From the NCBI GenBank assembly GCA_965249025.1, contig OZ252215.1, positions 622,600 through 686,599 of the forward strand: 64,000 bases of DNA. The letters run 5' to 3'. Below are positions 23,131-64,000 of this stretch, one piece after another. The DNA comes from Dehalococcoidia bacterium. Its GTDB lineage: Bacteria > Chloroflexota > Dehalococcoidia > Lucifugimonadales > CAYTFF01. The position numbers and the translations under genes were made by a program. Positions within the stretch are counted from its first letter, which is position 1; every line of letters begins with the position of its first letter. Under the pieces are notes generated by a model. That model made no database searches and had not been told where the DNA came from. It saw only the letters and a program-made list of their open reading frames with translations.

Positions 23131-23203
23131 CCTAGCCTCCTTTCGAACTGCTTTATTAAGACTGATAACGGCCAATGCGTATTCTTTGTATCATGCAACG
23201 CTG

Positions 23204-37878: not shown

Positions 37879-38538
37879 TTGGCTAAAATACGCGTCCTGA
37901 TTGCTGACGACCACGCTATAGTCCGCAGTGGCCTGCGCATGCTTCTGTCGCAACAGCAGGATATAGAAGTGGTAGGAGAAGCGGGAGATGGTCAGGAGTG
38001 CGTAGAGATGACCTCTCAACTTAACCCAGACCTGGTCCTTATGGACATCTCCATGCCAAATATGAACGGAATAGAAGCGACCAAAGTCATCAAAGAAAGT
38101 CGCTCGGGCGTTCAGGTTTTGGGGCTGACGATGCATGAAGACGACGTCTATTTCTTCCAGTTGCTCCAAGCAGGGGCGTCTGGATATGTTTTGAAAGGAG
38201 CTTCTCCTGATGAGCTATTGACGGCTATACGAGTAGTCGCTCAGGGTCATGCCTATATATTCCCCAGTCTAGCCAAAAAGCTTTTGGACGATTACGTACA
38301 ACGCGTCGCAACCGGTGAAGAGCAGGAACCGTACGGCCGCCTCACAGACCGAGAGAAAGAGGTCCTAAAGCTAATTGCGGAGGGAAATACCTCTCGTAGG
38401 ATAGCGGACACCTTGTACCTTAGTATCAATACGGTTGAACGTCACCGCTCAAACATAATGGACAAGCTGAATTTACATAACAAAGCAGACCTGATAAAGT
38501 ACGCTATTCGCAAGGGCCTGGTGAAGCTGGAAGGGTAA
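37879..38538 (+). CDS. NarL/NreC-family response regulator
   Basis: LIADDH, LMDISMP, GYVLK, LTDRE...TVERHRSNIMDKL. Confidence 0.92.
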   Translation: MAKIRVLIADDHAIVRSGLRMLLSQQQDIEVVGEAGDGQECVEMTSQLNPDLVLMDISMPNMNGIEATKVIKESRSGVQVLGLTMHEDDVYFFQLLQAGASGYVLKGASPDELLTAIRVVAQGHAYIFPSLAKKLLDDYVQRVATGEEQEPYGRLTDREKEVLKLIAEGNTSRRIADTLYLSINTVERHRSNIMDKLNLHNKADLIKYAIRKGLVKLEG

Positions 38539-38562
38539 CCACGCCTCTCTTGCCCAATTGAA

Positions 38563-38592
38563 AAAAGACACCATGTTAACATGGTGTCTTTT
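38563..38592. terminator. Perfect 30-bp palindrome after the regulator
   Basis: AAAAGACACCATGTTAACATGGTGTCTTTT. Confidence 0.65.
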
Positions 38593-38689
38593 CTTATTCA
38601 GAATCACCAGAATTAATCATAACTTCCCTTGCATTCCTCAGGTATATTCCTTTGGGTAAGCAAATCCTCAAAGCCCACAAGGAGCACAC

Positions 38690-39301
38690 ATGAGATACCT
38701 AGTGATAGTATTCCTCGTTGTTTTCGGCGCAGGGTTCGCCATAGCGTGCGGTGCAGAAGGGCCGCCCGTCGCTCCGAGTCCTACAGCGGAGGATTCAGAG
38801 GAAGCCCACGAAGCAGATGAGGGCCATGAGCAAATATCGCCCCAGGCTCTCCAGGGCAAAGAAGTGTATACGAACGCTGGATGCGCAGCTTGTCATGGAC
38901 TAGATGGACAAGGGACGGCTGCCGCTCCAGGCCTTCCAGCCCATACGGAGGACCAGGTTCGTCGACAGGTCCGTGCACCGGCCGGCATCATGCCAGTTTT
39001 CCCAAAAGACAAAATCAGCGATTCACAGCTAGACGATCTTTTCGTCTATATTGCAGGCCTTTCAGGTAGTCACGCCCACGAGAGCTGGGCTGATACCGGT
39101 GCGCAGATGCAGATGCACCACTGGATGGCGTTATTTGCAATCGAAGGTGGAGATACCCATGAGGCACGTCATCACGTGGAACACATTATTGAAATCACCG
39201 AAGGCGATCACCAGGCTCGCATGAAAAGCGTTCTGAACGACCTGGAAGCCGACAACTTACACGATACGGCGTATGTAGTAGAAGAAACACATGCATTGTA
39301 G
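38690..39301 (+). CDS. Monoheme cytochrome c lipoprotein with a His-rich C-terminal domain, truncated by the IS
   Basis: FAIAC lipobox, CAACH, IMP. The stop codon TAG (39299-39301) lies inside the IS left inverted repeat. Confidence 0.8.
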   Translation: MRYLVIVFLVVFGAGFAIACGAEGPPVAPSPTAEDSEEAHEADEGHEQISPQALQGKEVYTNAGCAACHGLDGQGTAAAPGLPAHTEDQVRRQVRAPAGIMPVFPKDKISDSQLDDLFVYIAGLSGSHAHESWADTGAQMQMHHWMALFAIEGGDTHEARHHVEHIIEITEGDHQARMKSVLNDLEADNLHDTAYVVEETHAL

Positions 39302-40836
39302 GGTGTCAGCGCAATTGGACACTATTGAGGCCTAGAAAACCGAAGAGGTTGGGGGTGTGGTAGAGGCTCCTTCAGAGGGGTAGATTAACCCTAAGTGAAA
39401 GGAGTCATTGATGACCCAGGTAGAGGATCAGGCCAGTCAAGCTGAGGAGCGAAGCCAGGAGACACGAAGCTTCGTGCGTCAGGTCCGTGCAGCGACCCGC
39501 CGTAAGTATACCCCCGAAGAGAAGATCCGTGTCGTCCTGGAGGGCTTTAGCCGGGAGGTCACTGTCAATGACCTGTGCAGGCGAGAGGGGATCAAGCCCC
39601 ACTCCTACTACGCCTGGACGAAGGAGTTCATGGAAGCTGGGAAGGAGAGGTTGACTCGGGACAGTGTGCGTGATGCGACCCGGCAAGAGATAGAGCAGCT
39701 CAAGCGGGAGAACAGTGAACTGAAGCAGCTGGTGGGTGAGTTGTCCCTGGAGTTGCACCGCTTCAAAAAACAGCTCTGCCGCCCCTACACGACAACGGCA
39801 CCGTCGCATGAGCGTAGTGGAACAATCGAAGGTCGTGGCTGAGGTGGAGCGACATGGTAGAGGGAAGAACAGGCGACTCAGGGAGCTTGGCATTTCCAGG
39901 AGCACGTATTATTGGTGGAGGTGGAGGCACCGGCAGGGTAGTTGGGAGGGTACGGAAGGAACTGAGAGGCCCTGGAATCGCCTGCGTCCAGAAGAGGAGG
40001 CAGTAGTGCTGGCGGCAGCCCGTGTGATGCCGACCTGGCGAAGCCGGCAGTTGGCGGCTTCGCTCACCGACCACAGAGGCCTATCGGTCTCCGCCTCCAC
40101 AGTCTATCGTATCCTGAGACGGGAGGGTCTGGTGAAACGGATCGAATACCAGTTGGCAGCGGGCAAAGAGTAGCAGCACAAGACCACAGGGCCCCACCAG
40201 CTGTGGGCCACCGATGCTTCCTACTTCCGTGTAGTGGGATGGGGCTACTACTACCTCGTGACGGTGATGGACGACTACTCCCGGTTCATCTTGGCCTGGA
40301 AGGTGCAACGGGACATGACGGCCGACTCCCTCATAGAGGTGGTCCAGCAAGCTGTTGACTCTACTGGTATGACTGATGTACCTCTGGAGGATCGGACCAA
40401 GCTCCTCTCAGATAATGGCTCAGGTTATGTATCGCGGGCCTTCCGCGAGTACATGCGGGTGGTGGGCATTCGCCACGTCCTGGCAGCACCCTATCACCCT
40501 CAGACCAACGGGAAGCTGGAGAGATATCACCGAACCCTGAAAGACGACATTAACCAGGTGCCATACGAGGTGGTGGAAGACCTGGAGGCGGCCATCCGGG
40601 ACTTCGTCGAGTTCTACAACTACCGGAGATATCATCAGGCGCTCAGGGTTGTAACTCCGGCTGACGTGCTGGAAGGCCGTCTGGAGGCAATTCTAGCCCA
40701 GAGGAAGGAGGTACAGCGAGAGACTTTTGACCGGCGGAGGCGGTACAATCAGGAGGTCAGAGAAACCCTCAAACCAGGAGCTTCTTCACCCCAATCTCTC
40801 GGACCCAGAACTGTCCAAAACCGCTGACACCCAACA
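39297..40836 (+). mobile_element. IS3-family element (orfA 39408-, orfB to 40827), inactivated
   Basis: IRL TGTAGGGTGTCAGCGCAATTGGACA and IRR TGTCCAAAACCGCTGACACCCAACA (21/25 match). DDE motifs ATD...SDNG...TNGKLER. Frameshift near 39770-39810 and TAG at 40171. No target-site duplication. Confidence 0.9.
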
Positions 40837-41133
40837 TTGGAGATTAATCCCAAGACGGCCAAGCAAAGGGGAATCCAAAATGGAGGCGATGTGATTATTG
40901 AGTCTCACAACGCTGTGACTGGCGAGACGAGAAAGATTAAAACCATGGCGGCCTACTTGGAGAGCACCCGGCCAGATACGGTTTGTTTGCCCCATCACTA
41001 TGGTTTCTGGGTCAACCCAATTACGAAGGGCCATGGGCCTACACCCAACGAAATTTTTTATAGTGGAGAGGGCTACGTCAGCAATACCGCCGATCAGTCT
41101 TACCATGTCAAGGTTCGTGTGTATAAAGCCTAG
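40837..41133 (+). pseudogene. C-terminal molybdopterin-dinucleotide-binding domain of a Mo/W-bisPGD oxidoreductase; the rest of the gene is deleted
   Basis: LEINPKTAKQRGIQNGGDVIIES...RPDTVCLPHHYG...VKVRVYKA starts at the first base after the IS IRR. Confidence 0.85.
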
Positions 41134-41146
41134 GAGGTAACCTGAA

Positions 41147-41920
41147 ATGCCTAGATGGGGAATGGTAATCGATCTTTCCAAGTGTTACGGCTGCCGGGCG
41201 TGCATGGTGGCCTGTAAGGTGGAGAACAACACACCCCAGAGCCAATTCTGGATGTATGTTTATCGACTTGAGGAGGGGGAATACCCCAACGCTGAGGTGC
41301 GGTTCCTCCCCAGGCCCTGCATGCACTGCGACAAGGCTCCATGTGTCAAGGTGTGCCCTGTAGGTGCGCTCTACAAGAGGAAAGACGGCCTAGTGGCCAC
41401 CGACTGGGACAGGTGCATAGGCTGCCGTTACTGCATGATAGCTTGTCCATATGGAGTTAACTACTATAACTGGAAGGATCCAAAGAAGGCCCAATATCTT
41501 AAATGGGAGGATCCAGACAAAGATCTGCCGAATTGGGATGCGCCTGCCGCTGAGGCTCTGAATAAGGTTACCAATGGGGTCGTGCCTCCCTATAAGAATC
41601 CAGACCTGGACCAACGTATGAAAGATAACCGAAGGACAGCAGGGGGTGGTCACCACGATGGGGTTGTAGAGAAGTGCACTTTTTGTGTACACAGGGTGGA
41701 GAAGGGTCTGCAACCGGCCTGCGTTGCCAATTGCCCTGCATTTGCCCTTCATTTCGGTGACCTGGACGATCCTAGCAGTAACGTTTCCAAGCTAGTGGCT
41801 AAACACCGCTCTTCTCGGTTGAAGGACGATCTTAACACTCAGCCAAAGGTGTACTACATTAATGAGCCTCTACCTGGGGCAGAGACCGGCGAAATTGAAG
41901 CTGTAAAAGGAGGGAAGTGA
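41147..41920 (+). CDS. 4x[4Fe-4S] electron-transfer subunit (NrfC/PsrB/DmsB-type)
   Basis: CYGCRACMVAC, CMHCDKAPCVKVCP, CIGCRYCMIACP, KCTFC...PACVANCP. Confidence 0.92.
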   Translation: MPRWGMVIDLSKCYGCRACMVACKVENNTPQSQFWMYVYRLEEGEYPNAEVRFLPRPCMHCDKAPCVKVCPVGALYKRKDGLVATDWDRCIGCRYCMIACPYGVNYYNWKDPKKAQYLKWEDPDKDLPNWDAPAAEALNKVTNGVVPPYKNPDLDQRMKDNRRTAGGGHHDGVVEKCTFCVHRVEKGLQPACVANCPAFALHFGDLDDPSSNVSKLVAKHRSSRLKDDLNTQPKVYYINEPLPGAETGEIEAVKGGK

Positions 41921-41923
41921 TCC

Positions 41924-43096
41924 ATGACCACTCCAACAGCACTTGGTCGAATGAACAAGTATACTTGGGGCTTCTATGTCTGGATCGGGATCCTTGGAGT
42001 GCTCGTGGTGCTGGGGCTTTACAATTTCGTGCGACAGACCGTCGAAGGACACCACGTTACCGGCCTGAGCAATGCGGTGCTATGGGGTTTATACATAACT
42101 GGGTTTGTTTTCTTCGTTGGCACCAGTGCGGGAGCAACCGTTATTGGGCTTATGATTCACGCGTTTGGACGCGAGGATTATGCGCCACTAGGGACCCGAG
42201 CCATACTGGTGGGGATGCTGTCCTTAATGGCTGCTATACTATTCATCACTGTGGACGTTGGCTCTATCCCGCGGATGCTGCGGCTACCGATTATTTGGCG
42301 AAACCCGACATCGACGTTCATGTATACGTCGATCACGTATTACGTGTTCGGTCTGCTGATGGCTGCGGAGCTATTCTACACATTAAAAGTGACCCGAGGA
42401 GTCGCTACTCTTAGGGACAAGAAAATAGGGAAGTGGCTTGCTATTGCCGCAGTTCCATTTGCCCTCGTAGTGGTGCATGCACCTCACGGAGGCCTGTTTG
42501 CCGTGATCAAGGCTAGGGACTTCTGGAACACACTTCTTCTGCCTCCACACTTCGCAATTGCGGCTGTAGCCACCGGAACCGCCGTAATGATGTTAGTGGC
42601 GATTGTGACTTCTGCGTGGAATAAGAGAGAGCTTGTGAGTAGGAGAACCCTTGCCCATATGGGCGCACTGCTCACTCTCTTCATAGGGGTCGCTGCGTTT
42701 CTGGATGTATTCGACCTTCTGGTGTTCACCTATAGTGACAAGCCTGCAGGAAACGCAGCTTGGGATGTCCTGTTCGGCCAAAACTTGCCCATTACTATCA
42801 TTCACGTCGGTGGGTACTTCGTAGCGTTTGTAATTCTGTTGTACAACCGTGGTAGGAGCATTCCGTTGTTGGGTGTTGGCGCGGGTATAGCTATAATCGC
42901 TCTAGCAGCATTCCGCTACAACTTGACATCGGTTGGATTAGGAACGCCATTGCTCCCGTTTGAATCAATAGCGTCTTATACCCAGACATGGGGTGAGATA
43001 TTGCTCGCACTGGGCATAGTGGGGCTGATACCGCTGATCTACACAGTGCTGACCAGGGTGATTCCTATGGAGGAGAGGGTCGGCCGGTCAAGCTAG
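41924..43096 (+). CDS. NrfD/PsrC-family membrane anchor
   Basis: WGLYITGFVFFVG, DVG...R...WRNPTS, HAPHGGLF, multiple TM segments. Confidence 0.88.
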   Translation: MTTPTALGRMNKYTWGFYVWIGILGVLVVLGLYNFVRQTVEGHHVTGLSNAVLWGLYITGFVFFVGTSAGATVIGLMIHAFGREDYAPLGTRAILVGMLSLMAAILFITVDVGSIPRMLRLPIIWRNPTSTFMYTSITYYVFGLLMAAELFYTLKVTRGVATLRDKKIGKWLAIAAVPFALVVVHAPHGGLFAVIKARDFWNTLLLPPHFAIAAVATGTAVMMLVAIVTSAWNKRELVSRRTLAHMGALLTLFIGVAAFLDVFDLLVFTYSDKPAGNAAWDVLFGQNLPITIIHVGGYFVAFVILLYNRGRSIPLLGVGAGIAIIALAAFRYNLTSVGLGTPLLPFESIASYTQTWGEILLALGIVGLIPLIYTVLTRVIPMEERVGRSS

Positions 43097-43195
43097 TGGT
43101 TTGTAGTTCATAACTAGAGGTTGCTCCTTTGCAAGGTGGTTTATGAACTCATGCTCCACGTATAAGACGAGTGGACTGATCTTAGTGGAGGTTGC

Positions 43196-45151
43196 GTGGT
43201 GAGTCGAGGACGCGACAGTGGCGACAACGGGACTGACCTGCCCCCAGTAATTGTACCAGATTAAACCTCGCATTCAAGCCATTGCAGGCATGGTAGTTTG
43301 TGGAGTTGGCGGTCGATATCCCAGTGCACTGTGAGGCCTTACCTGGTTATACTCTTTTCTCCACCATTCAATGAGTATCCGGGCTTCAGCAAGGGTATTG
43401 AACAATTCACCATTTAGGAACTCATCCCTCAGTTTCCCGTTGAATGACTCGACGTAACCATTTTCCCAAGGACTTCCAGGCTCTATGAACAGGGCCCTTC
43501 ACCTCCAGGTTAGATAACCACCCTCTCACCGCTTTGGAGGTGAACTCCGGGCCATTATCAGAGCGGACGTGCTCCGGAACCCCTCTGACCAGGAACAGCA
43601 TGTAGAGCTGGTCCAGGACATCCTGTGATGTGATGCTCCGCTTCACCACCATGGCTAAACACTCCCTGGTGTACTCGTCCACGATCGCCAGGATACGGAA
43701 AGCCCTGCCATCTGCGGTCCTTGCCGCCACGAAGTCGTAGCTCCACACATGGTCTTTGCGCTCCGGCCTAAGCCTTATACACGACCCATCGTTCAGCCAT
43801 AACCGGCCTCTCTTGGGCTGTTTACCGGGTACTTTCAATCCCTCAATCCTCCATATACGTTCCACTCTCTTGTGGTTCACCCTCCACCCTTCGCTCTTCA
43901 ATAGGGCTGTCACCCTACGATAACCGTACCTGCCATACCTAGTGGCCAACTCCACTATCCTCCTGACCAGTGCATCACTATCGATATCTCTGCCATGAGA
44001 ATACCTCTGGGTTGCTCTGGGTTGGGTGATCACCTGGCACGCCCGCCTCTGAGACACTCCCAACTGCTCACATACTCTCTCCACCAGCTTCCGTCTCCTA
44101 GGCGGGCTCAGGAGTTTCCCCGAAGAGCCTCCTTCAAGATGTCCTTGTCCAAGCTCAGGTCTGCCACCAGCCTCTTCAACCGGACGTTCTCCTTCTCCAA
44201 CTCCCTTAGCCTCTTGGCCTGCTCCACACCCATCCCACCATACTCTTTCCTCCACACGTAATAGGTGTGATCAGACACCCCTATCCTCCTCACTGCCTCC
44301 CATACAGCTTGCCCTTGCTGCACCAGTACATCCACCTCACGCAGCTTCTCTATGATCTGTTCCGGTGTATATCCCTTCCTAGGCATCTGCCCCCCTTTCT
44401 ACTATATCCAGTGTGCGAGTTTATCACTGGACTAGTTTTCGTGGGTCAGGTCAGGAGGAACGGGCAGGACCTTGTGGAAATGGTGGATCTAGCGCGGCTT
44501 CGGCAAGGGGCGTACCGGCTTTTCAGTCAGAGTCTGCTATATCCGGATGACCAGAGGCTGGTAGCTATTGCCTGTGTAGCAGAAGAGTTGCTGGGGGAGA
44601 GTGGGGTATGGGGCAACTTTGCCTTCTTCGAGGAGTGGAGCCGATTCCTGCGGTGCCTTGAGGAGTTGCGCTCCCAAGACCCTACTGCACTCCAGGGCGA
44701 GTATATCTCAAACTTCTCAGTGAACCGAGTTGGCATTCCCAGCCCCATCTTCGAGTCGGCCTATCTGGAGGAGGACACATCTAGCACCGGATGGCTCTTG
44801 GCCGGACTAGAGGGCGAGTACAGGAGGGAGGGCCTTTATCCATCTTTTAAGGATCCCCCTGATCATGCGTCTGTAGAATTGGAATTTATGTCCTTCCTCT
44901 GCGATCGGGAGGCAGATGCTTGGGGCAAACATGAGCTATCGCGTGCCATTGGAGATCTTCAGAAGGAACGGGATTTTTTGACTCATCACCTTTGCTGGTG
45001 GTTTCCTGAGTTCGCTAGCAAGGTTGCTACCGAAGTTGGCGGTGGCGTGCTTTATGCCGCGGCCCGGGCTGCAGAGGCCTTCTTGGTCCACGACAAGGAG
45101 CTTTTGGATACTCTACTTCAGCGTTTCGAAGGCGTAGAGGAGAGGTTATGA
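43196..45151 (+). pseudogene. TorD/DmsD-family chaperone interrupted near its 5' end by the IS407-type element
   Basis: EPPDH-like KDPPDHASVELEFM and HLCWWFP. Removing 43234-44457 restores an in-frame start (GGAGG..GTG 43196: MVSRGRDSGDNGTNGQDLVEMVDL). The body (44459-45151) is intact. Confidence 0.75.
43234..44453 (-). mobile_element. IS3-family (IS407-group) element, orfB frameshifted
   Basis: Ends TGACCTGCCCC... and ...GGGTCAGGTCA, 1220 bp. orfA 44108-44386, slippery [28 protein letters not shown] after a +1 shift near 43500. Flanks GGAC/GGAG. Confidence 0.9.
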
Positions 45152-46800
45152 TAGTGGAAGGCCAAGTATCTAAGCGCGTTTCCAGGGAGGCAGGCCGTGA
45201 TGAAGACGACCTGTCTACCATTGTCTTTTTTTGTCAGGATCTCCAGGATATAGGCAATGGTCTTGACATAATGGAACTTTGTCAGTGGCTGGAGACAGCA
45301 GATTGGAACGTGAGAGGAAGAGCGGTTCCCGAGCTCTGTCACAGTCCTGAGGGCCTATTCCAATCGGTTTCTGGGAAAGCTAATCGGGTTGTCTTGTGTG
45401 TATGCGCCCGGGACTACGCTGAGTTGGAGGTGCAGTCCCAGGCTAGGAAGGCTGGACTGGACCCAATTGGAATTGAAGTCTTGAACTTGGGAGCCTTCTG
45501 TAGCCTGATTCCCGACGCCTCTGTGAGGTTAGAGAAGGCCAAGGTTTTGCTTGCGGCTACCGTTGCCAAGGCAAGGGCCTATTCTGGAAGCAGCCCTGAG
45601 AGTCTCAGTCCATACTTTCCATCGCTTTCCCAGAGGGTAAGCCGACGCGCCTTGTTCACTTTGCCGACGATACGTTATAAGGCGGTGGCCTCTATCGACG
45701 GTCAGCGCTGCGTTGCTGAGAGAGGCTGTGAGATTTGCGTTCGGGCGTGCCCTAAAAATGCGCTCCAAAATTCGGGAGGAGCGCTGTTGGTGAGCAAGGC
45801 TCAGTGCGATGGATGCGGCATCTGCGTGACTGAGTGTCCTCAGGGCGCCGTTGAATTTCCTGATGGCACCTCTCGACAGTTTGAAGCCCAAGTCGCGGCT
45901 CTCCTTGAAGCGGGTTCTAATGGTATGGGGGAACGCCGTATTCTTTTTACGTGTAGAGGTGGCACAGAGGCCATCGGGCAAGCGGGACAGAACGGTGTGG
46001 GCACGTCGGCTTCCTGGCTCCCTGTGGTTGTGCGTTGTACTGGGATGATCACTGTAGGGTGGATTCTCCAGTGTGTGGCAGCCGGCGCCTCGGTTGGCGT
46101 AGTCTCCTGCAGCGAGGGCTGTTCACTTAATCAGGATAAGACTGCCTCTGGAAGGGTCGATTACTGTCGAGAGTTGCTGCGGTTATTGGGAGGGTCCCCA
46201 GAGTTGGTGAGGATAGTAGATCCTTGGGAGACACCCAGCTCTGGGCAGATGTTTGATGATAATGCTAATATCGCCGGGTCAAGAAGCAATGGCACTGCTC
46301 CTCAGCCGGTCGTATTCGGATCAGATGCCTTTGTCAATGCTATGAAGAAATTGGCGGAAATATATGAAGGCATCACTACCCTTCGTTTTGAACATCCTTA
46401 TTCGCCTGCTGGAGCTGTGGACATAGAACGCCAGCATTGCACCGCTTGCGGGGTGTGCGCTGAGACCTGTCCGACGATGGCATTGCAGTTCGAGCGCCGC
46501 TCTAATAAAGTAGCCCTCACCTTTGACGCTGGATTGTGTGTGGCCTGTGGTCAGTGCTCTTCCATGTGCCCGGAGGCTAATCTCGGAGCGATTCGAGTGG
46601 AAAGGGTGACGGACTTTGCTCGACTGACTAATGGGCGGGAAATCCTGCATGAGGATATGGAAAGGCGTTGTAAGGCATGTGGTGGTCCTGTGGCTACCCA
46701 GGGCATGTTGAACCGGATAGCTTCTCTCTTAGGAGAGGAAAGCGCTGTGTTGATGGACGAGATCGAACAGTACTGTAGCTCATGCAGGATGAATAGATAA
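45148..46800 (+). CDS. Polyferredoxin-type Fe-S protein with HdrA-N-like and MvhD/FlpD-like regions
   Basis: CEICVRACP, CDGCGICVTECP, CTACGVCAETCP, CVACGQCSSMCP, VRCTGMI..GW...G..VVSC...C, C-terminal CKAC/CSSC. No FAD motif. Confidence 0.75.
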   Translation: MIVEGQVSKRVSREAGRDEDDLSTIVFFCQDLQDIGNGLDIMELCQWLETADWNVRGRAVPELCHSPEGLFQSVSGKANRVVLCVCARDYAELEVQSQARKAGLDPIGIEVLNLGAFCSLIPDASVRLEKAKVLLAATVAKARAYSGSSPESLSPYFPSLSQRVSRRALFTLPTIRYKAVASIDGQRCVAERGCEICVRACPKNALQNSGGALLVSKAQCDGCGICVTECPQGAVEFPDGTSRQFEAQVAALLEAGSNGMGERRILFTCRGGTEAIGQAGQNGVGTSASWLPVVVRCTGMITVGWILQCVAAGASVGVVSCSEGCSLNQDKTASGRVDYCRELLRLLGGSPELVRIVDPWETPSSGQMFDDNANIAGSRSNGTAPQPVVFGSDAFVNAMKKLAEIYEGITTLRFEHPYSPAGAVDIERQHCTACGVCAETCPTMALQFERRSNKVALTFDAGLCVACGQCSSMCPEANLGAIRVERVTDFARLTNGREILHEDMERRCKACGGPVATQGMLNRIASLLGEESAVLMDEIEQYCSSCRMNR

Positions 46801-55587: not shown

Positions 55588-57078
55588 TTAGATAGGAACA
55601 CGGACAGTGACCCTGGTTCCCATTTTGGGGCTGGATTCTATCTGAAATTCTCCGAGGAGCAATTCAGTCCGTTCTTTCATTCCGAGGAGGCCCAAATGGC
55701 TAGAGGCTACGATGTCACGTGCTCCAGTTGGTAGGTTGAAGCCCACTCCGTTGTCTTTTACGTCCAGGATGACTTCACTATTTGAAAAGGATACAACTAG
55801 ATTGACTTGAGACGCTTGCGCATGGCGTTCTACGTTTCTTAGCGCCTCTTGAGCAATGCGGAACAGTCCGAGCTCTATGTCTGAAGACAGACGTGTCTCT
55901 TCTCCTTTAACCTGCAACTTGGCGTTAATTACAGTCTGTTCGGATAGGTCTTCAAGTGTCCTTCGTATGGAGGTGACCAGACCTAGATCGTCTAAGATTG
56001 GGGGTCTGAGGGCTTTGGCGAAGTCCCTTAGGTCCCTTACGGTCTCTTCAGCAGTTCGCCTGGCCTCGTTTAACTCGTCAAGAACAACAGGAGGCAAAGT
56101 CTCGCCAGCACTTTCCAGGGAATCTAGCTTGCGACAAAGGAGGATGAGGCCTTGGACTGTATCATCGTGCAGTTCTTGGGCGATTCTCTTGCGCTCATCT
56201 TCTTGGGCTCGAAGTATATGTGCTGTATATGCCTTGAGTCCTGCTCTACGATGTAACTCCTCAGTAATGTCCCGGAGAAGCACCTGAAAGACCGGGTTTC
56301 CTTGGTGATTGCTGATCCTTGTCAGGGTAGGCTCCAAGTAAACTTGGCCGCCATCTTTTGACTTGAAGTCTAGATGGATGTCTTTGCTTATGTCACCCGC
56401 AGAATGGTCGAGGATTTTCTTCGCCTCTGAAGTTCCAACCAGGGCAGATATGGTGGTACCTATTAGCTCTTCAGTGGTTCTGATGAATAGTGCACCAGAG
56501 GCTGGATTGGCATCTAACACGATGCCCTCAGGATTCAGGACAAGCACAGGGATGGGGCTGGAGTCGAAGAGACCGCGGTACTTGGACTCGGAGGCTCTCA
56601 GTGCGGCACTGGCCTCTTCTGCGCGTCTCCGCGCCCCCATCTCTCTGTCGACTCGGTGTCCCACAAAGATCGCTACCGCAATAACTATGCCAAGTTGGAA
56701 GGTCTCCGCAAAGCGATCTGTGCCGGGGTGCAGCCATGCAATATTAGGGACTGAAAGTATGGCACACCATATGGCAGTGGCGATAGATCCCGCGAAGCCG
56801 AAATTCAAGGCTGCATACACGACCGGGACAAAGAAAAAAGATATGGGTATGAGGGTTGGAATATCGACCTTGCCAGGAGAGTACTCCACCCACTCAAGTA
56901 GGCTATGTACAATGGCAACTAGAAGCACAAAGACCTGCACCGCCCAGAAGCGCCAATCCCTAAACCGGGGACGATAAGGGAAGAGTTGTCTCTTCAGATA
57001 GAAGAGCCATCCAGTGAGGTTTGACTCAAGGTTGCCCATCGAGGGTTTCATGAAGACCCCTGTCCTCTGTACCGTCAC
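55588..57078 (-). CDS. Membrane PAS / HisKA_3 sensor kinase (intact)
   Basis: TM region, YRGLFDSSP PAS, EDERKRIAQELHD, EALRNVERH, DNGVG. Confidence 0.9.
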   Translation of the reverse strand: MTVQRTGVFMKPSMGNLESNLTGWLFYLKRQLFPYRPRFRDWRFWAVQVFVLLVAIVHSLLEWVEYSPGKVDIPTLIPISFFFVPVVYAALNFGFAGSIATAIWCAILSVPNIAWLHPGTDRFAETFQLGIVIAVAIFVGHRVDREMGARRRAEEASAALRASESKYRGLFDSSPIPVLVLNPEGIVLDANPASGALFIRTTEELIGTTISALVGTSEAKKILDHSAGDISKDIHLDFKSKDGGQVYLEPTLTRISNHQGNPVFQVLLRDITEELHRRAGLKAYTAHILRAQEDERKRIAQELHDDTVQGLILLCRKLDSLESAGETLPPVVLDELNEARRTAEETVRDLRDFAKALRPPILDDLGLVTSIRRTLEDLSEQTVINAKLQVKGEETRLSSDIELGLFRIAQEALRNVERHAQASQVNLVVSFSNSEVILDVKDNGVGFNLPTGARDIVASSHLGLLGMKERTELLLGEFQIESSPKMGTRVTVRVPI

Positions 57079-57749
57079 ACTTTGTCCTGGTCTAACGATA
57101 TCCAGTGCTGGGATGCTGCATATAGGATGGCCTCAATGCGTGAGGTAACATTGAGCTTGGTCAGTATACTGCTCAGGTGTCCTTCCACGGTACGTACGCT
57201 TATGCCGAGATTTTCTGCGATTGCCTTGTTTCGGAGTCCTTTGGCGGCGAGGTCTAGTACCTCTAACTCACGTTGACTGAGCTCTTCGACCGCTTTCCGT
57301 CCCCTTTCCATGGATGACTGGCGGCGACTCCACAGGCGGGCCACTTTCATGGCAATGGCTGGATGCAGAACAGGCTTGCCTATGTTGATGCTACGTACTG
57401 CTTCAATCAGTTCGTTTGCTCTTACCGTTTTGAGGAGGTAACCAGAGGCGCCGGCTTCCATCAGTGCCAGAATGTATTCGTCATCGTCGTAGGCGGTTAG
57501 GATAAGGGCTTTGGTGGATGGGGAGCAGGCCTTCATGCGTCGTACTACTTCAACACCGCTGAGGCAAGGCATGCGAATATCCAGGATGGCGATGTCTGGG
57601 CGCAGGCATTTTATCAGTTCCAGTGCCTCTTCGCCGTTACCCGCCTCGCCGATCACCTTGAGGTCGTCCTGTTGCTCCAGAATCCGTCGGGTTCCGTCAC
57701 GGACCAAGGAATAGTCTTCTGCTAGGACGATACGTATAGGTTCTGTCAT
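57075..57749 (-). CDS. NarL/LuxR-family response regulator
   Basis: LAED, ILDIRMP, GYLLK, LSQRE...TVEGH. Start chosen at ATG 57749. Confidence 0.9.
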   Translation of the reverse strand: MTEPIRIVLAEDYSLVRDGTRRILEQQDDLKVIGEAGNGEEALELIKCLRPDIAILDIRMPCLSGVEVVRRMKACSPSTKALILTAYDDDEYILALMEAGASGYLLKTVRANELIEAVRSINIGKPVLHPAIAMKVARLWSRRQSSMERGRKAVEELSQRELEVLDLAAKGLRNKAIAENLGISVRTVEGHLSSILTKLNVTSRIEAILYAASQHWISLDQDKV

Positions 57750-57786
57750 GATCCACCCGCTTCCCTCTGATTGTACCATCATATTG

Positions 57787-57965: not shown

Positions 57966-58877
57966 ATGGATAGGGAAGAGAACTACCGCAAGTGGCAATT
58001 AAGCCGTCGTAAGCTTCTGAAGTTGATGGGCGCCGCAGGAGTAGGCGCTATCGCCGCGCCTCTCTTGCCATCTCTCTTAGAAAATGCTTCCGGAGCTACG
58101 TCTTATGAACATGCTCCAGAGGTAAGACGACTCCGTCGCTGGGGGATGATCATAGACTTGCGGAAGTGCGATGGCTGCCAAAGCGTTGGACTGCCTCCCC
58201 AATGCACGACCGCTTGTATAGAGGGTCACTTTGTCCCTGAACCCATGGAGTGGATTGAGGCCTATGAACACGAGCTACCTGGTGAGGGGACATTCTTCCT
58301 ACCTACACCGTGCATGCAGTGCCAGAACCCCCCTTGCGTGAATGTTTGTCCTGTAGGGGCCACCTGGTCCACACCAGAGGGTGTCGTGCTGATAGACCAA
58401 AATCGGTGCATTGGCTGTCGCATGTGCATGGCGGCCTGTCCTTATGAACGGCGATTTTTCACCTGGGGGGAACCCGCAATTCCTCTAGAGGCTCTATTTG
58501 TGGAGTACAGCCCTGAGCACTCTACACCTGTGAAGAGAAATGTGGTTTCCAAATGCGACTTCTGCCCGGAGATGGCCCGTGCCGGGCGGCTACCCTTCTG
58601 TGCTCAGGCGTGTCCCAACAACGCAATATATTACGGCGATTTGGAGGAGGACCTGGCAACCAATGGTGTAGAGGTCGTGCAGTTCTCCAAGTTCATCTCG
58701 AAGAACACTGCGTATCGTTACAAGGAGCATCTGCGTACAGAGCCTCGGGTTTACTACATTCCCGGTTATGGGCAAGAGGTAGGTCGTACTTCCAACCAGA
58801 AGGGGCGCAAACCTGTTGAATGGAAATGGACCAAGGTCAAGGAAGGAGCAAAGAGGTGGAAGCACTCCGGCCGATAG
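57966..58877 (+). CDS. Tat-exported 4x[4Fe-4S] protein (NrfC/TtrB/QrcC-like)
   Basis: SRRKLLK twin-arginine signal. CDGC...CTTAC, CMQCQNPPCVNVCP, CIGCRMCMAACP, KCDFC...FCAQACP. Confidence 0.9.
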   Translation: MDREENYRKWQLSRRKLLKLMGAAGVGAIAAPLLPSLLENASGATSYEHAPEVRRLRRWGMIIDLRKCDGCQSVGLPPQCTTACIEGHFVPEPMEWIEAYEHELPGEGTFFLPTPCMQCQNPPCVNVCPVGATWSTPEGVVLIDQNRCIGCRMCMAACPYERRFFTWGEPAIPLEALFVEYSPEHSTPVKRNVVSKCDFCPEMARAGRLPFCAQACPNNAIYYGDLEEDLATNGVEVVQFSKFISKNTAYRYKEHLRTEPRVYYIPGYGQEVGRTSNQKGRKPVEWKWTKVKEGAKRWKHSGR

Positions 58878-60226
58878 ACTACAAAGCCGAGCTTGAAGAA
58901 CGTGCTGCGGCCCCATTGCGTCGAACCAGCAGGGGATACCTCATACTAATGGGTGTATTGCTTGTGATCATAGCGTGGGGCGCCTATACGTATTCTATCC
59001 AGCTACGAGACGGCCTGATAGTCACAGGTATGCGGGATCACATCTCCTGGGGTCTCTATATAGCTATGTTTGTCTTCTTCATTGGCGCCAGCATGGCTGG
59101 CACATTTACGTCGGCCATTCTTCGTATCACCAGGGCACCATGGCGCACTCCAATAATACGTTCGGCTGAGATGGTGACCGTGGCGGCGTTGATAACGGCG
59201 GGCCTGTTCATCATCTTCGACATGGGAAAGCGAGAGAGGCTTCATAATATCTGGCTTTTTAGTCGGTGGGAGTCGCCCCTAATATGGGATGTCCATGGCA
59301 TGACAACTTATCTAATGGGTAGCGTCGTCTACTTCTATGCCGCCCTTATTCCGGATTTAGCTTACTTCCGAGACAAGATAGGGGTGCAGGCATCTCCTTT
59401 GAGGCGCTGGCTCTACAAGACCCTTTCTATAGGCTGGCGTGGCACTCCTTCTCAACGCCATCACCTTCAAAGGACAATGACCATTATGATGATTCTGCTC
59501 ATCCCCGTAGCGGTGATGATGCACTCAGTTACCTCCTGGATCTTCGCCATGACCCTCCGAGAGCCGTGGGACAGCCCGGTGTTCGCCGTCTTTTTCGTTG
59601 GCGGCGCTATATATTCAGGAACGGGAATCATAATCATACTTCTGGCAGCAATGAGAAAAGCCTATAAGCTGGAGAACTTCATCACTCATCGGCACTTCTA
59701 CTATTTGGGACTCCTCTTGGTAGGCATGGCGTGCATCATGTTCTTCTTCAATTTGAGCGAGCTCCTCACTCACGCATACAAGCTCAGAGGAGATATGACA
59801 ACTCACCTGGAAGAATTGTTTCAAGATGGTATGGCTCCCCTCTTTTGGACCTACCTGTGGGGTGGCATTATAGCTCCTATGGTTCTAATTCTGTTGCCTT
59901 ACACTCGAAACATCAAAGGCATAGTGACCGCGGCCGTTTTGGTGAACCTGGGGATGTTCTTGGAGCACTACACCATTGTGGTTGGCGGTCTGCGGCTGCC
60001 GCTGAATCCTTACGAGCTGCCCAGCTATTTCCCAACGTGGAATGAGTGGTCTCTTATGGCCGGTGGAATAGCGATCTTTATATTAATTCTCATGATCCTG
60101 ATGAAGTTGGTGCCCAATGTAGCACTCACGGAGATGCTGGAAGAGAACGGCATAGAAAGCAAAGCAGCAGAATCACCTAGACCCTTTGGAGAGCCTAGTC
60201 CACAGCCATCTTCAGGAGGCGAGTGA
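58856..60226 (+). CDS. NrfD/ActC/QrcD-family quinone-interacting membrane subunit
   Basis: WGLYIAMFVFFIG, DMGKRER, SPLIWD, MHSVTSWIF. Likely GTG start at 58856. Confidence 0.88.
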   Translation: MEALRPIDYKAELEERAAAPLRRTSRGYLILMGVLLVIIAWGAYTYSIQLRDGLIVTGMRDHISWGLYIAMFVFFIGASMAGTFTSAILRITRAPWRTPIIRSAEMVTVAALITAGLFIIFDMGKRERLHNIWLFSRWESPLIWDVHGMTTYLMGSVVYFYAALIPDLAYFRDKIGVQASPLRRWLYKTLSIGWRGTPSQRHHLQRTMTIMMILLIPVAVMMHSVTSWIFAMTLREPWDSPVFAVFFVGGAIYSGTGIIIILLAAMRKAYKLENFITHRHFYYLGLLLVGMACIMFFFNLSELLTHAYKLRGDMTTHLEELFQDGMAPLFWTYLWGGIIAPMVLILLPYTRNIKGIVTAAVLVNLGMFLEHYTIVVGGLRLPLNPYELPSYFPTWNEWSLMAGGIAIFILILMILMKLVPNVALTEMLEENGIESKAAESPRPFGEPSPQPSSGGE

Positions 60227-60783
60227 TGCTCCGTAAAGTGCTTCTTGCAGCAGTTCTCCTCTGCATTCTAGGCTCTTTGATGTCTGCCTCTGCCCAAGGA
60301 CCAGAACCGAACCTAACTCTGGGGTTTCAATCAGAGGGGTCAGTGGGTAGCGATATAGCCCTGGGGCGCTATTTGATGGATCCGGCAGGTAACCCTATTC
60401 GCGATGTGGAGATAACCTTCTTCATTGACGCAGATTTCATGAACACCATTGATAATATAGAGATAGGAACTATTAAAACCGATGAGAACGGACTGGCCTT
60501 AATACGATATACCCTCAAACAGGAAGGCGAACGTACTATCACCGCCGAGTTTGTTGGTAATGAGATTTTTGATGCTACAAAGGCATCAGAACCCCTCAAA
60601 GTAGTTCCAGGGCCAGAGACCTATGTAGAGGAGAGGCCCTTCCGCATGCCGGGTGCGAATATCACAATGGTAGCCATAGTGTTAGTTGGGGTATGGGGAC
60701 TGTACCTTATAGCGGTATTGCGATTTTGGTACATCAGTCGAGACAAAGCGGCTGCGAAGGTGGAAGAGGAGGCTAGTCAGTGA
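60223..60783 (+). CDS. Signal peptide + Ig-like domain + C-terminal TM anchor, function unknown
   Basis: [12 protein letters not shown]...ITAEFVGN (Big-like); a hydrophobic C-terminal helix. Confidence 0.6.
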
Positions 60784-61651
60784 GACGCTTCCTTGTACCC
60801 GCCATGGCTACTGCGACGGTAGTTGGGGTCGGGCTGATATTATCCTTGTGGCTGCCCTCAGGCCGTGGACTGATACTGACAGAAGCTACGATACACACCT
60901 GAACTTCCAGGATGAGGTCCCCGAAGACTATACGCGAACAAAGGTTACTGCGGTGGAGTTGACTCCCAGTGCGCCCATTGGATGGGAGGTTGTTCGGAAT
61001 GGAGCCTCAGTTGCTGACCGAGGTTTAGTCTTATATGTGGCTCGTGGATGTGCCAGTTGTCACGGTCTTGGTGGGACAGGTACAAGCGTGGGCTCTTCAG
61101 TTCTCGGTGCCAGCGAGCGGAAGGTCACGCGATTAATACGGGATGGTAGCGGGGGAATGCCCGTCTACCACCCTAACGACCTGAGTGACCAGGAGATACA
61201 GACTCTTGCTGGTTACATTGCCTCCTTAGGCCCTGCTCCAACTGAGACGCCTATTTTTGGAACACCTACGGCAACACCCTGGCCTAGCCCTACACCTACC
61301 CCTGCGCCAAAGCCTACGCCGACTCCAATACCCACTCCTTCTTCTACTCCCGAACCAGGGACGACTCCAACTCCTACACCTGTGCCCACCGTAAGTGATG
61401 CAGAGATCAAAGCTGCTCAACAGCTTTATATAGACGTTGGATGCGACATATGCCATGGAAAGAGTGCTGAGGGTGGGGAAAAAGGGCCAGAGCTGAAAGG
61501 GTTTACTGCAGAGGATATTAGTAAGGCTGTGAGGGAGGGGATCCGCAATCAGGCTTCCAAATATCCGAGAGAAATGGAGCGATATACCACGAATGACCTG
61601 ACTGACGAGGAGCTTGAGCAACTAGTCAAGTATCTCTTAAGTCTAAAGTAA
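60780..61651 (+). CDS. Membrane-anchored diheme cytochrome c with a Pro/Thr linker; 1-nt frameshift in the anchor near 60840
   Basis: CASCH and CDICH. GTG 60780 ([20 protein letters not shown]) continues after a -1 shift as ILVAALRPW in ORF 60848-61651. Confidence 0.8.
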
Positions 61652-61709
61652 GTTCAGCGGGTGAGAATCGCCGCTTTGAAGATAGATAAATATTATTTGG
61701 AGGACAAGA

Positions 61710-62918
61710 ATGAGAATCACAGCACTGGTTGCGATGTTGTTTTTGGTAGTGAGTGTTCTTCTGGCCGCTTGCCAAGGGGACGTTGGGTCTCAAGGAGCGC
61801 AAGGCCCCATTGGCCCTCCCTGTTCGCCTGGTAAAGCAGGCGAAGCCGGTCCGGCTGGACCTCAGGGAGAGCGAGGCCTTCAAGGGGCCCAGGGCGCACA
61901 AGGGCTAAAAGGTACAACAGGTGTAATAGGTGCGCCAGGTGCACCAGGCCCAGAGGGTCCACCGGGGCCCGCAGGCCTTTCGGCGGCGGAGCTGCCACCC
62001 CGAGACCAATCCTTCTCTTTAGCCGTAACGGATGACGCTGGGACGCGCAAGAACGGCGCAGACCTGGTCACTCTGAAGTTCGGCGGGGGAACTCCAGATG
62101 GCAGAACGGTCGTGGCCAAAAAGGGCAATCCCACTATTGATGGAGTGGCTGGAGACTCTGAATGGGGGGTGCCATCGACAATACGTCTCGCACCAAAGAA
62201 TGGCGGTGGTGGACCGAGCAGGGCCACTATGCAGGCAGCCTATGATGACTATAACATCTACCTCCTTGTGACCTGGGAGGACCCCACAGGCACGAAGAGC
62301 ATCGACAAGAACATGTTGACATATGATGCGGCTTCGGATATTTGGAGCAAATCTGGAAATGAAGATAGGGTATTCTTCTTGTGGAACATCAATGCTACGG
62401 ACTTTGCCCCAGATGGGTGTTCAGCTTACTGCCATGCTGGTGAACCGGCCTGGGACGAGGCCGAAAGCAAGATGGGTACCAACTATCCTGGTGAAAAGGT
62501 GGATGTGTGGCACTGGAAAGCGGGAAGGACAAACGCCCAGGGTCACGCAGATGACAAACATTGGGTAGATATTGACCACGCCGAGCAGATCCTGTATGAA
62601 GGCGTGCGCATTCTAAACACCCGCTTGGCTGACACAGGATCCAGTTTTGCTGCTGGTAACGTGGGTGACGGCCAACCAAAGTCGATGAATAGGGAGGGGC
62701 GTAGCACTGACTCGTACCTCTGGGACTACCAGGCTGTTCCATTTGATCCAAATGCGGGATGGCAGGATGGCGACACCGTGCCTGGCTATGTTCTGAGTCA
62801 GCTTACCGGGAGCAATGCCGATGTCATCGCCAAGAGCGGCTTCTCTGACGGGACCTGGGTAGTGGAGTTCAAGCGTGTCCTCATCACGTATGACACCAAT
62901 GATGTGCAGTTCAAGTAG
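61710..62918 (+). CDS. Collagen-stalk lipoprotein with an ethylbenzene-dehydrogenase-gamma/DOMON-like heme-binding domain
   Basis: LAAC lipobox, (G-X-Y)n, [41 protein letters not shown]. It may be truncated after DVQFK. Confidence 0.7.
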
Positions 62919-63831
62919 AGGGGTAGGCGCTGAGGGAAAACTAGGTCCTTTGGCAAATTACCACTAACGTTAGATAGGGTTCGTGTATAGGGTAGAGTTC
63001 GACCCTCCTACTCCTTTGCCTAGGTACGAGCCACACATAACGGCCTTCGGGCGAGATGCTCGGAGGCCGTTTCGTTGGAGCGATATTGGAGCCTTGTTAA
63101 AAGAGTTACTCGGAAGAATAACACGAATGCCGAATCTGGGGGGATTCCCAATCTGGACGGAATAATCGCTATGTTTCAGGAAAATGAGTGTGGTAGGCCG
63201 AAAATTTGCAAACGCACGTCGAATATTTTCGTGGCACTTGAAGGACATCAGTGGATATTTGCAGAAGTCCTGAAATTATTATGACAACATTCACAATCTG
63301 CCTGTATGTTGACTATATATAGTTAATGTGCTATTTCTATAGCATACTTTAGTGATAGAAGAAGGAATGGCAGGGAAGTCAGGTTGGCCGTATTGTGTTG
63401 CTCTGGACTGTGAATGCATTGTTCATGAGGCCGCAAGGCACATGGGCCGGGATTTGCTTGGACAGTTCCTCAACTTTGTGCGTGCCTCTGAGGAGGGGTC
63501 TCGTCTCATACTTCAACGTAATGTAATAAGGAAGGCTTTACAGCCCAGGTGACCGGGCCGGTTAGAAGAGGAAGGGGTGAAGACCTATCGCAAGAGGATG
63601 TGGAGCTACTTCGAAGCGAGGGGGTCTAGCTAGAAGCTAAGGCAAAGCACTATCAGGGCAGATGACAACCGAAGGCTTGCTCCTAGATTCGAGATACGAC
63701 GGGGGCGCTTAGCATATAGACATGCTTAGTGTTCTCGTTTTTCTTTTTTGTGAGGGGGGGTGCGGAAACAGTTCTGGTGCGTTCTGAGGATGAAACACAC
63801 AAAGACAAAAAGGGAGCTATAGGGAACTATT

Positions 63832-64000
63832 ATGAAGGCAGTTACATACAGGAAGCCAGGAGTCAAGGAGGATGTTTGGATTCATAGCGTATGCGACCTG
63901 TGTTCCAATCAGTGCCCCGTAGTTGTGCGCCGGGTCAACGGGACCGTGGTGAAAATAGAGGGTGACCCCGATGGCCCCTTTGGTAACAGGCGGCTGTGCG
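63832..64000 (+). CDS. Mo/W-bisPGD oxidoreductase catalytic subunit, N-terminus (runs off the window)
   Basis: MKAVTYRKPGVKEDVWIHSVCDLCSNQCPVVVRRVNGTVVKIEGDPDGPFGNRRLC, a CxxCxxxC-x27-C [4Fe-4S] motif. No Tat signal. Confidence 0.85.
   Translation, partial: MKAVTYRKPGVKEDVWIHSVCDLCSNQCPVVVRRVNGTVVKIEGDPDGPFGNRRLC

Follow-up and report, generated by a model that had tools for sequence, protein, structure and literature searches.

The operon considered here lies in a stretch of 64,000 nucleotides from the genome of a Dehalococcoidia bacterium (GenBank assembly GCA_965249025.1), which is assembled as one contig of 3.28 Mb (OZ252215.1, hereafter C1). This whole stretch, referred to as the window, covers positions 622600–686599 of C1. 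ORF calling located five co-directional open reading frames (ORFs) on the plus strand, designated A to E, that form one operon at 57966–62918 of the window and appear to encode an electron-transfer module built on an iron-sulfur (Fe-S) protein and an NrfD-family membrane subunit. A (57966–58877, 303 amino acids) is a Tat-exported ferredoxin-like protein with four Cys4 motifs (Fer4_11, 72 bits), and B (58820–60226, 468 amino acids) is a haem-free, ActC-like NrfD-family protein (Pfam NrfD, 117 bits). C (60223–60783, 186 amino acids) consists of a signal peptide, an Ig-like β-sandwich with a weak Big_1 match and a C-terminal membrane helix. D (60780–61651, with the haem-domain ORF at 60848–61651) is a membrane-anchored dihaem class-I cytochrome c that is frameshifted as assembled (Cytochrome_CBB3, 86 bits; two CXXCH motifs). 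E (61710–62918, 402 amino acids) is a lipoprotein with a collagen-like stalk (Collagen, 56 bits) and an EB_dh head (100.7 bits; cut-off 33.3).

The genes are tightly packed. A and B overlap by 58 nucleotides and B and C by 4, the GTG at 60780 that starts the D anchor frame overlaps the stop codon of C, and 58 nucleotides separate D from E. A first-pass annotation of this DNA had described five overlapping or abutting ORFs with no molybdopterin (Mo) subunit, ActA, ActD, ActF or pentahaem cytochrome among them. Both statements agree with the present ORF calls and Pfam scan, in which no Mo subunit, ActA, ActD, ActF or multihaem cytochrome was found within 57966–62918.

A carries the Tat motif SRRKLL and 16 Cys residues arranged in four Cys4 motifs, the first of which has an 8-residue spacer. 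All 16 Cys residues are kept in each of 27 orthologs and the Tat motif in 23 of them, so that the earlier description of a Tat protein with four [4Fe-4S] clusters stands. Among NCBIfam models, A scores 172.3 bits with DsrO (cut-off 200), 126.9 with NrfC (377.6) and 124.7 with QrcC (400), all below cut-off. The closest solved structures in a search of the PDB are PsrB (2vpw_B) and the C-terminal Fe-S part of ActB.

The assignment of B to the NrfD family was likewise confirmed, and its only significant matches in the PDB are the ActC and ActF chains of alternative complex III (ACIII), the best being 6f0k_C at 2e-49. With NCBIfam models, B gives 134.7 bits for DsrP (cut-off 350) and 60.6 for QrcD (570); DsrO and DsrP are thus the best-scoring models for A and B, respectively, and both fall below cut-off. 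Asp134, Ser152, Asp157 and His235 are invariant among 28 orthologs of B. Comparison of the quinone site showed that the equivalents of ActC Ser164 and Asp169 are kept, that Asp occupies the position of ActC His139 and that Ile occupies that of ActC Asp253. Asp at the His139 position, together with equivalents of Ser164 and Asp169, has been listed for subunits of the DsrP/QrcD/NhcC type (PMC8076601).

In a maximum-likelihood tree of NrfD proteins, B falls within a clade of 28 A-B-C-linked NrfD sequences (SH-aLRT 97). This clade is sister to Psr/Qrc-like units with adjacent Mo genes, and the two together are sister to ActC and ActF of ACIII, including R. marinus ActC (SH-aLRT 96). E. coli NrfD, DmsC and HybB and the other NrfD paralogs of this genome lie outside the ActC-like supergroup. 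The references were ActC from the PDB and E. coli NrfD, DmsC and HybB, and the NCBIfam scores given above complement the tree. Among solved structures, ActC is the nearest to B, which belongs to a clade sister to Mo-linked units and, beyond these, to ACIII.

B was searched in 301 Dehalococcoidia genomes, and about 19 kb around 34 matches were fetched and their ORFs called. A sharp break separates about 35 matches at 39–56% identity from a large group at about 35%, and an ortholog of B is present in about 30 of the 301 genomes. The order A-B-C without an operonic Mo gene was found at about 26 loci, and at about 12 of these the next gene after C encodes a cytochrome c. Overall, A-B-C is kept without a molybdopterin subunit at about 28 orthologous loci. 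Matches of about 40% identity (L064, L065, L068 and L069) are Mo-FeS-NrfD units, and the group at about 35%, which includes a locus of this genome (L070), is canonical ACIII. A scan of 185,579 species genomes revealed further Mo-less A-B-C or A-B-D loci in metagenome-assembled genomes (MAGs) of Limnocylindria, Acidimicrobiia, Phycisphaerales and Gemmatimonadaceae, as well as two in MAGs that are labelled archaeal and possibly misbinned. Loci at or below 43% identity in the same scan are mostly units of a Mo subunit (about 800 amino acids), an Fe-S protein, NrfD and a cytochrome c. The Tat-exported Mo subunits of the sister-clade units match the ArrA, PhsA and QrcB models best, below cut-off.

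The absence of a Mo subunit is conserved and is not an accident of this genome. The first-pass annotation, which had proposed an operon without its own catalytic subunit, is upheld by this survey, as the homologous operons are without one too and no loss particular to this genome is seen. It had, however, treated the missing subunit as a distinctive feature, and this does not hold, since Fe-S and NrfD modules without one are already known (NrfCD, SirCD, Cbc4/CbcSTU and DsrOP; PMC8076601, PMC11434368).

Two protein families recur downstream of A-B-C(-D) in relatives, one of about 260 amino acids without a Pfam match and one of about 540–600 amino acids with a weak TIG/IPT match. They were seen at L043 (5260–7750), L060, L061, L042, L048 and L056, and both are absent from the window.

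The Mo gene downstream of the operon (63832 onward; C1:686431–688832) was considered as a partner and rejected. Its product has no Tat motif, and the gene is broken into two ORFs that overlap (523 and 278 amino acids), a frameshift that is either a pseudogene or an assembly error. It is separated from E by a gap of 914 bp, is followed by genes of acyl-CoA metabolism (enoyl-CoA hydratase, a thiamine pyrophosphate (TPP) enzyme, a citrate-synthase-like protein and a CoA-transferase) and is not conserved near the orthologs. The enzyme is thus cytoplasmic and unrelated to the operon. The 914-bp stretch itself (62919–63831) contains no ORF longer than 92 amino acids, no Rfam match and no terminator-like site.

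C was predicted by AlphaFold (pLDDT 89) to comprise a sandwich at residues 30–128 and a helix at residues 147–185, which, with the weak Big_1 match, supports the earlier description of an Ig-like membrane protein. Foldseek with this model returned only generic Ig/MG/CARDB/SoxZ-like folds and no subunit of any solved NrfD complex. A sequence search of the PDB gave no match, Pfam gave no match to ActD (PF11821), and neither Pfam nor PDB comparison ties C to a described NrfD complex.

C follows B at about 26 orthologous loci, and the Ig core and the Trp of the membrane helix are conserved in the alignment of its orthologs. Several of these carry additional redox domains. A cbb3-type cytochrome c domain is fused to C at L054, L059 and L078, an N-terminal stretch with CXXCH is present at L053 and L058, and a cupredoxin-like domain with C-x2-H-x2-M is present at L060, L061, L063 and L052 (Cupredoxin_1, E = 1e-3 in L061). 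In view of these fusions, C looks like a subunit that anchors high-potential one-electron carriers in the membrane or serves as their adaptor. An Ig-like adaptor subunit with swappable carriers is undescribed in the literature searched, and no description of the module in Dehalococcoidia was found there.

D contains two CXXCH class-I cytochrome domains (Cytochrome_CBB3/Cytochrom_C) joined by a Pro/Thr-rich linker of about 55 residues. The first-pass annotation was correct in naming a dihaem cytochrome c but had placed it on a Pro/Thr stalk, and the Pro/Thr stretch instead connects the two haem domains. Thirteen orthologous D proteins begin with M..R(F)LVP, continue with a membrane helix of about 20 residues and then show RPW or RSPYTHxNL..GY.RT. 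In the window the GTG at 60780 opens the frame of the signal anchor, and the post-anchor stretch and the haem domains are read in the 60848 frame. Comparison with the 13 orthologs indicated that one base is missing at about 60834–60846, in GATATTATCC, which has no long homopolymer. The frameshift noted earlier near 60840 is therefore real in the assembly, with anchor and haem domains in different frames. An assembly error and a real mutation appear equally possible from the sequence.

E has the lipobox LAAC, about 22 G-X-Y triplets, one of them interrupted by Cys, and an EB_dh domain. Its model has a pLDDT of 81.5 with the stalk disordered, and the best Foldseek matches are NxrC (7b04_C; probability 1.0) and EbdC (2ivf_C; 0.94). 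The head includes the motif C237-x3-C241-H242 (GCSAYCH). Across 43 relatives of E the pattern is G-C-x3-C-H, with H242 and M326 never varying and with C237 and C241 conserved to at least 90%. The haem of E is probably haem c bound covalently through C-x3-C-H, as judged from this pattern. Thus, of the collagen-stalked, DOMON-like haem lipoprotein described before, the lipoprotein and the collagen stalk stand, and plain haem b gives way to the c-type C-x3-C-H motif kept in the relatives. The same motif occurs as GCWLTCH at the same alignment position in an Azospira protein (P0086) of the NirB (cytochrome c-552)/Dsui_0143 type. The authors who described the Dsui_0143-type protein noted its atypical CWXXCH haem c motif, and the EbdC-like Dsui_0143 adjoins a NapC-type quinol dehydrogenase in the perchlorate island (PMC3884062).

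The E family comprises about 55 clusters at 53–62% identity, mostly of about 333 amino acids and few with collagen, and the only names that these clusters bear are 'ethylbenzene dehydrogenase-related'. The C-x3-C-H EB_dh proteins are a large unstudied family. No description of C-x3-C-H together with DOMON was found in the literature searched, and the link between the module and these proteins is undescribed as far as that literature shows. E is the only EB_dh gene in the genome. Its role as the γ subunit of a type II Mo enzyme was ruled out by a TIGR03477 score of 15.9 bits, as compared with 169.85, and by the absence of adjacent α and β genes.

The surroundings of E-type genes are varied. The order is E-A-B-C at L078, where C has the cytochrome c fusion, and A-B-C-D-E(-ResB) at L045 and L046. 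L077 and L079 have kinase-regulator-regulator-cNMP-E-Band_7, and the same order precedes A-B-C at L050, L055 and L059. At L086, an EB_dh protein on a mucin-like stalk is encoded directly upstream of A-B-D. At L073 (10001–13219), E heads an operon for a Rieske protein, cytochrome b and a cytochrome b-dihaem c protein; at L080 (4486–8338), Ccm genes and a gene for an MtrC-like multihaem cytochrome with collagen are arranged divergently to it. In a Melioribacteraceae MAG (L093, 79–5303), an EB_dh protein sorted by the type IX secretion system (T9SS) is encoded upstream of a Mo-FeS-NrfD-cytochrome c unit. In these neighbourhoods, E-type proteins accompany quinol-interacting complexes of unrelated architecture, and they appear to be surface-directed. 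The position beside A-B-C at L078, L045 and L046 and at the head of the Rieske/cytochrome b operon at L073 ties E to quinol-oxidising complexes of two unrelated types.

Upstream of the operon and divergent from it, two regulatory genes lie on the minus strand: a sensor kinase with PAS, HisKA_3 and HATPase_c domains (55588–57078) and a NarL/LuxR-type response regulator with REC and GerE domains (57075–57782; Response_reg 94 bits, GerE 72 bits). The intergenic region between the response regulator and A is 183 bp. Sets of a HisKA_3 kinase and a LuxR-type regulator flank many orthologous A-B-C loci as well, and the PAS-HisKA_3 kinase is a probable regulator of the operon. A scan for promoters and terminators gave no signal above chance and no terminator after E, and an Rfam scan of 62850–63900 gave no match.

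Elsewhere in the genome, ACIII is encoded at C1:1.761–1.769 Mb, within L070 (C1:1753400–1772600) and separate from the operon. The gene order is ActA (c7-like)-B1-B2-NrfD-NrfD-ActD (PF11821)-cytochrome c-CcmH-CcmF, with ActB split into genes for a Mo-like protein of 760 amino acids and an Fe-S protein of 254. The genome further encodes four collagen-stalked lipoproteins with 13–24 G-X-Y triplets, at C1:1919792–1920637, at C1:2150774–2152135 and in the window at 22030–23175 and 61710–62918. Three of the four bear redox heads, namely the EB_dh domain of E, a tandem cupredoxin (window 22030–23175) and two CHRD domains with a plastocyanin-like domain (C1:2150774). This suggests that the organism makes general use of collagen stalks to tether electron carriers.

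A second Mo-less pair of genes for an Fe-S protein (41147–41920) and NrfD (41924–43096) lies in the window region 36613–46800, flanked by insertion sequence (IS) elements of the rve type at 40234–40827 (plus strand) and 43422–44255 (minus strand). Upstream are genes for a HAMP-HisKA_3 kinase, a LuxR regulator and a cbb3-type cytochrome c (36613–39301), and downstream are those for a TorD/NarJ-like chaperone (44267–45151) and an Fe-S/FlpD protein (45148–46800). The region looks like a Mo-enzyme operon broken by insertion sequences.

The content of the operon is best accounted for by a quinol:carrier oxidoreductase similar to NrfCD, SirCD and Cbc4, with a new Ig-like subunit and stalked carriers, and this assignment is judged somewhat more likely than not. 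The module would probably connect the membrane with haem and copper carriers that are tethered on the outside of the cell. B would bind menaquinol at the outer face of the membrane, and electrons would pass through the four Fe-S clusters of the exported A to high-potential one-electron carriers on single-pass anchors. In this operon the carrier would be D, and in relatives a cytochrome c or cupredoxin-like domain fused to C. The second haem domain of D is held on its flexible linker, and E, with its EbdC/NirB-like haem head, may carry the electrons farther out to an acceptor. Owing to the linker of D and the stalk of E, the distal haems could act well away from the membrane. Cells of this type have a single membrane and could not keep soluble carriers in place, and tethered carriers would fit such a cell. 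What the data establish are the order of the genes, their domains, the conservation of the cofactor motifs and of the lack of a Mo subunit, the fusion of carrier domains to C and the place of B in the tree. Quinol as the donor, the direction of flow, the contacts that C, D and E make with A-B, and the final acceptor are predictions. The first-pass annotation had proposed a minimal ACIII/Qrc-like complex with new peripheral subunits that pass electrons to distant surface partners. Of this, the ActC-like core and the new Ig-like subunit are retained, a core of this kind is already known, and E is a sporadic accessory rather than an integral peripheral subunit. Contact with distant surface partners is plausible in view of the stalks and of the T9SS-sorted relatives of E.

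Several observations weigh against a working quinol:carrier oxidoreductase of this composition. The direction of electron flow is not readable from sequence, and the subunit contacts are deduced from the order of the genes and from fusions. Most orthologous A-B-C loci, surveyed with a hidden Markov model of the EB_dh domain alone, have no E, and relatives of E occur in 8 of the 301 Dehalococcoidia genomes, none at more than 34% identity. Neither the classical nor the futalosine menaquinone pathway was detected in the genome (no MqnA/D; MenD and MenB below cut-off), and a MenA-like prenyltransferase at C1:429585 reaches 85.7 bits against a cut-off of 102. The earlier term 'quinone-linked' is an overstatement, the link to quinones being a prediction from the conserved quinone-site residues. 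The genome nevertheless has a complete ACIII, one haem-copper oxidase (COX1) and seven Fe-S/NrfD pairs. In the related Dehalococcoides, the NrfD-like OmeB is used without quinones, and by analogy B might have a quinone-independent role like that proposed for OmeB (PMC10772276). Other observations concern this copy. As assembled, the haem domains of D have no export signal, and the frameshift may mean that the module is impaired in this genome. Residue 383 of B (window 59966–59968) is His, where 27 of 28 orthologs have the mid-membrane 'gate' Arg (ActC Arg395), a position that is also Arg in ActC and most NrfD families. The branches of B and C are about 1.5–2 times longer than those of their sisters. 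On His383 and these long branches, the copy may be decaying. It is accordingly a possibility of some weight, though judged short of probable, that the family is functional elsewhere and is represented here by a remnant that is no working conduit. The D frameshift lacking a long homopolymer and the breakage nearby, in the split Mo gene and the IS-flanked second pair, fit such decay. On the other hand, the ORFs of A, B, C and E are undamaged, run over their full length and retain every cofactor motif, the A branch is not accelerated, and a single-base error in a one-contig assembly would explain D equally well.

Two further explanations concern the function of the family. In one, which is unlikely, flow is reversed as in Qrc: an extracytoplasmic donor (reduced metals, humics, or a hydrogenase or formate dehydrogenase acting via cytochromes) would reduce E and D, and electrons would pass through A to quinone reduced at B, in a reaction that could be electrogenic. 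The Asp at the ActC His139 position is shared with the quinone reductases QrcD and NhcC (PMC8076601), but it is also present in DsrP, for which the direction is debated. The match of the nearest Mo-linked sisters to the QrcB, ArrA and PhsA models is in line with quinone reduction, and the T9SS tails and MtrC-like multihaem cytochromes near relatives of E (L080, L078) fit external substrates in either direction. D, however, is a class-I cytochrome (cbb3/c4-like), the fused domains in relatives are cupredoxin-like, and a relative of E heads the Rieske/cytochrome b operon, a quinol oxidiser. Class-I cytochromes and cupredoxins are usually high-potential carriers located downstream of quinol oxidation.

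In the other explanation, which is very improbable, A-B would anchor a conventional Mo/W enzyme of three subunits in the membrane, the gene for the catalytic subunit would lie at another place in the genome, and the cytochrome and EB_dh genes would be mere neighbours. The closest non-orthologous relatives, at about 40% identity, are indeed Mo-FeS-NrfD units, the genome has 16 molybdopterin-family genes, and three orthologous loci (L039, L042 and L051) have a Mo gene no more than a few kb away. Yet the approximately 28 orthologous loci have no operonic Mo gene and keep C with cytochrome or cupredoxin domains. Moreover, when the 16 Mo proteins were searched for the motif, a single one, the ActB1-like subunit of ACIII, had a Tat signal, and none was an orphan exported subunit able to dock in trans. 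The adjacent Mo protein, split and without Tat, is 24–28% identical to those encoded near relatives.

What is known of the respiratory chains of uncultured Dehalococcoidia and related single-membrane bacteria, which abound in sediments and aquifers, comes mostly from annotation. The module is present in about one tenth of the sampled Dehalococcoidia genomes and in several other phyla, separate from their ACIII. With interchangeable cytochrome c, cupredoxin-like or EB_dh carriers, it is a candidate second outlet for quinol that could set which external acceptors or donors are used. The Ig-like subunit, with redox domains that can be swapped, and the haem and copper proteins on collagen stalks illustrate how cells without a periplasm can keep and place electron carriers.

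A bolder proposal, to which little probability is attached, is that A-B-C with its tethered carriers is a long-reach electron conduit of single-membrane, S-layered bacteria (Chloroflexota, Acidimicrobiia). In that case a trimeric, collagen-stalked EB_dh head with c-type haem, held about 20 nm out, would be the terminal oxidoreductase for minerals, humics or partner cells. Such a conduit would be an extracellular electron-transfer route unrelated to Mtr/Omc or to the flavin systems of Gram-positive bacteria, and might even run without quinones, as proposed for OmeB of Dehalococcoides.

Among known systems, the operon has the architecture of the catalytic-subunit-free Fe-S and NrfD modules. NrfCD is such a module, through which electrons enter or leave between the quinone pool and extracytoplasmic cytochromes (PMC8076601). 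According to a published summary, SirCD and Cbc4 (CbcSTU) are Fe-S/NrfD pairs of the same kind, equally devoid of a catalytic subunit, and SirCD can replace CymA as quinol dehydrogenase (PMC11434368). Like these, the operon combines an exported four-cluster ferredoxin, a haem-free NrfD protein and a c-type cytochrome with no Mo subunit. Unlike these, it adds a conserved Ig-like single-pass subunit, and its partners are class-I cytochrome c or cupredoxin-like domains and not multihaem cytochromes. Orthology to NrfC and NrfD proper is not indicated, as the 468-residue B is ActC-like and does not cluster with E. coli NrfD, DmsC or HybB, and A is far below the NrfC cut-off (126.9 against 377.6 bits). 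The Mo-less Fe-S/NrfD core is of a kind already known; what is new, as far as the searched literature shows, is the Ig-like adaptor with its swappable carriers, together with the tie to C-x3-C-H EB_dh proteins.

The operon resembles ACIII in B, whose best solved relatives are ActC chains, in A, which is similar to the Fe-S (B2) part of ActB, and in the exit proposed for electrons, a monohaem-type cytochrome c or blue copper protein tethered to the membrane. The output carriers of ACIII are ActE and auracyanin. However, ActA, the Mo-like ActB1, ActD (PF11821) and the second NrfD (ActF) are all missing from the operon, and ActA and ActB1 also from the orthologous operons, while the genome's own ACIII has all four. 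Despite 6f0k_C being its best match, B belongs to a sister clade outside ACIII and differs from ActC at His139 and Asp253.

With QrcABCD and DsrOP, the operon shares the Fe-S and NrfD redox dimer and the Asp at the quinone-site position of transmembrane helix 2 (TMH2). It differs from QrcABCD in having neither the multihaem cytochrome QrcA nor a QrcB-like subunit, and in QrcC and QrcD scores below cut-off. It differs from DsrMKJOP in having neither DsrJ nor DsrMK, in DsrO and DsrP scores below cut-off and in neighbours that are an Ig-like protein, a cytochrome c and an EB_dh protein. Unlike Psr, Phs, Ttr and Arr, neither the operon nor the orthologous loci encode a Tat-exported bis-MGD subunit, which is present only in the sister clade of about 40% identity.

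E has the fold of EB_dh (PF09459) and of the γ subunits of type II DMSO reductases, and is not an equivalog of the latter with α and β partners. Unlike NirB (c-552) and Dsui_0143, it has no N-terminal CXXCH haem, represented by CVSCH in P0086, is a lipoprotein on a collagen-like stalk and shares only about 26% identity with that type. The EB_dh fold and the C-x3-C-H, W-x-W/R-T-N-P and P-x-x-M motifs are nevertheless common to E and to the NirB/Dsui_0143 type. Like that of Dsui_0143, the gene for E lies beside a quinol dehydrogenase (PMC3884062), a putative one of the Fe-S/NrfD kind for E and one of the NapC/NirT kind for the NirB/Dsui_0143 type.

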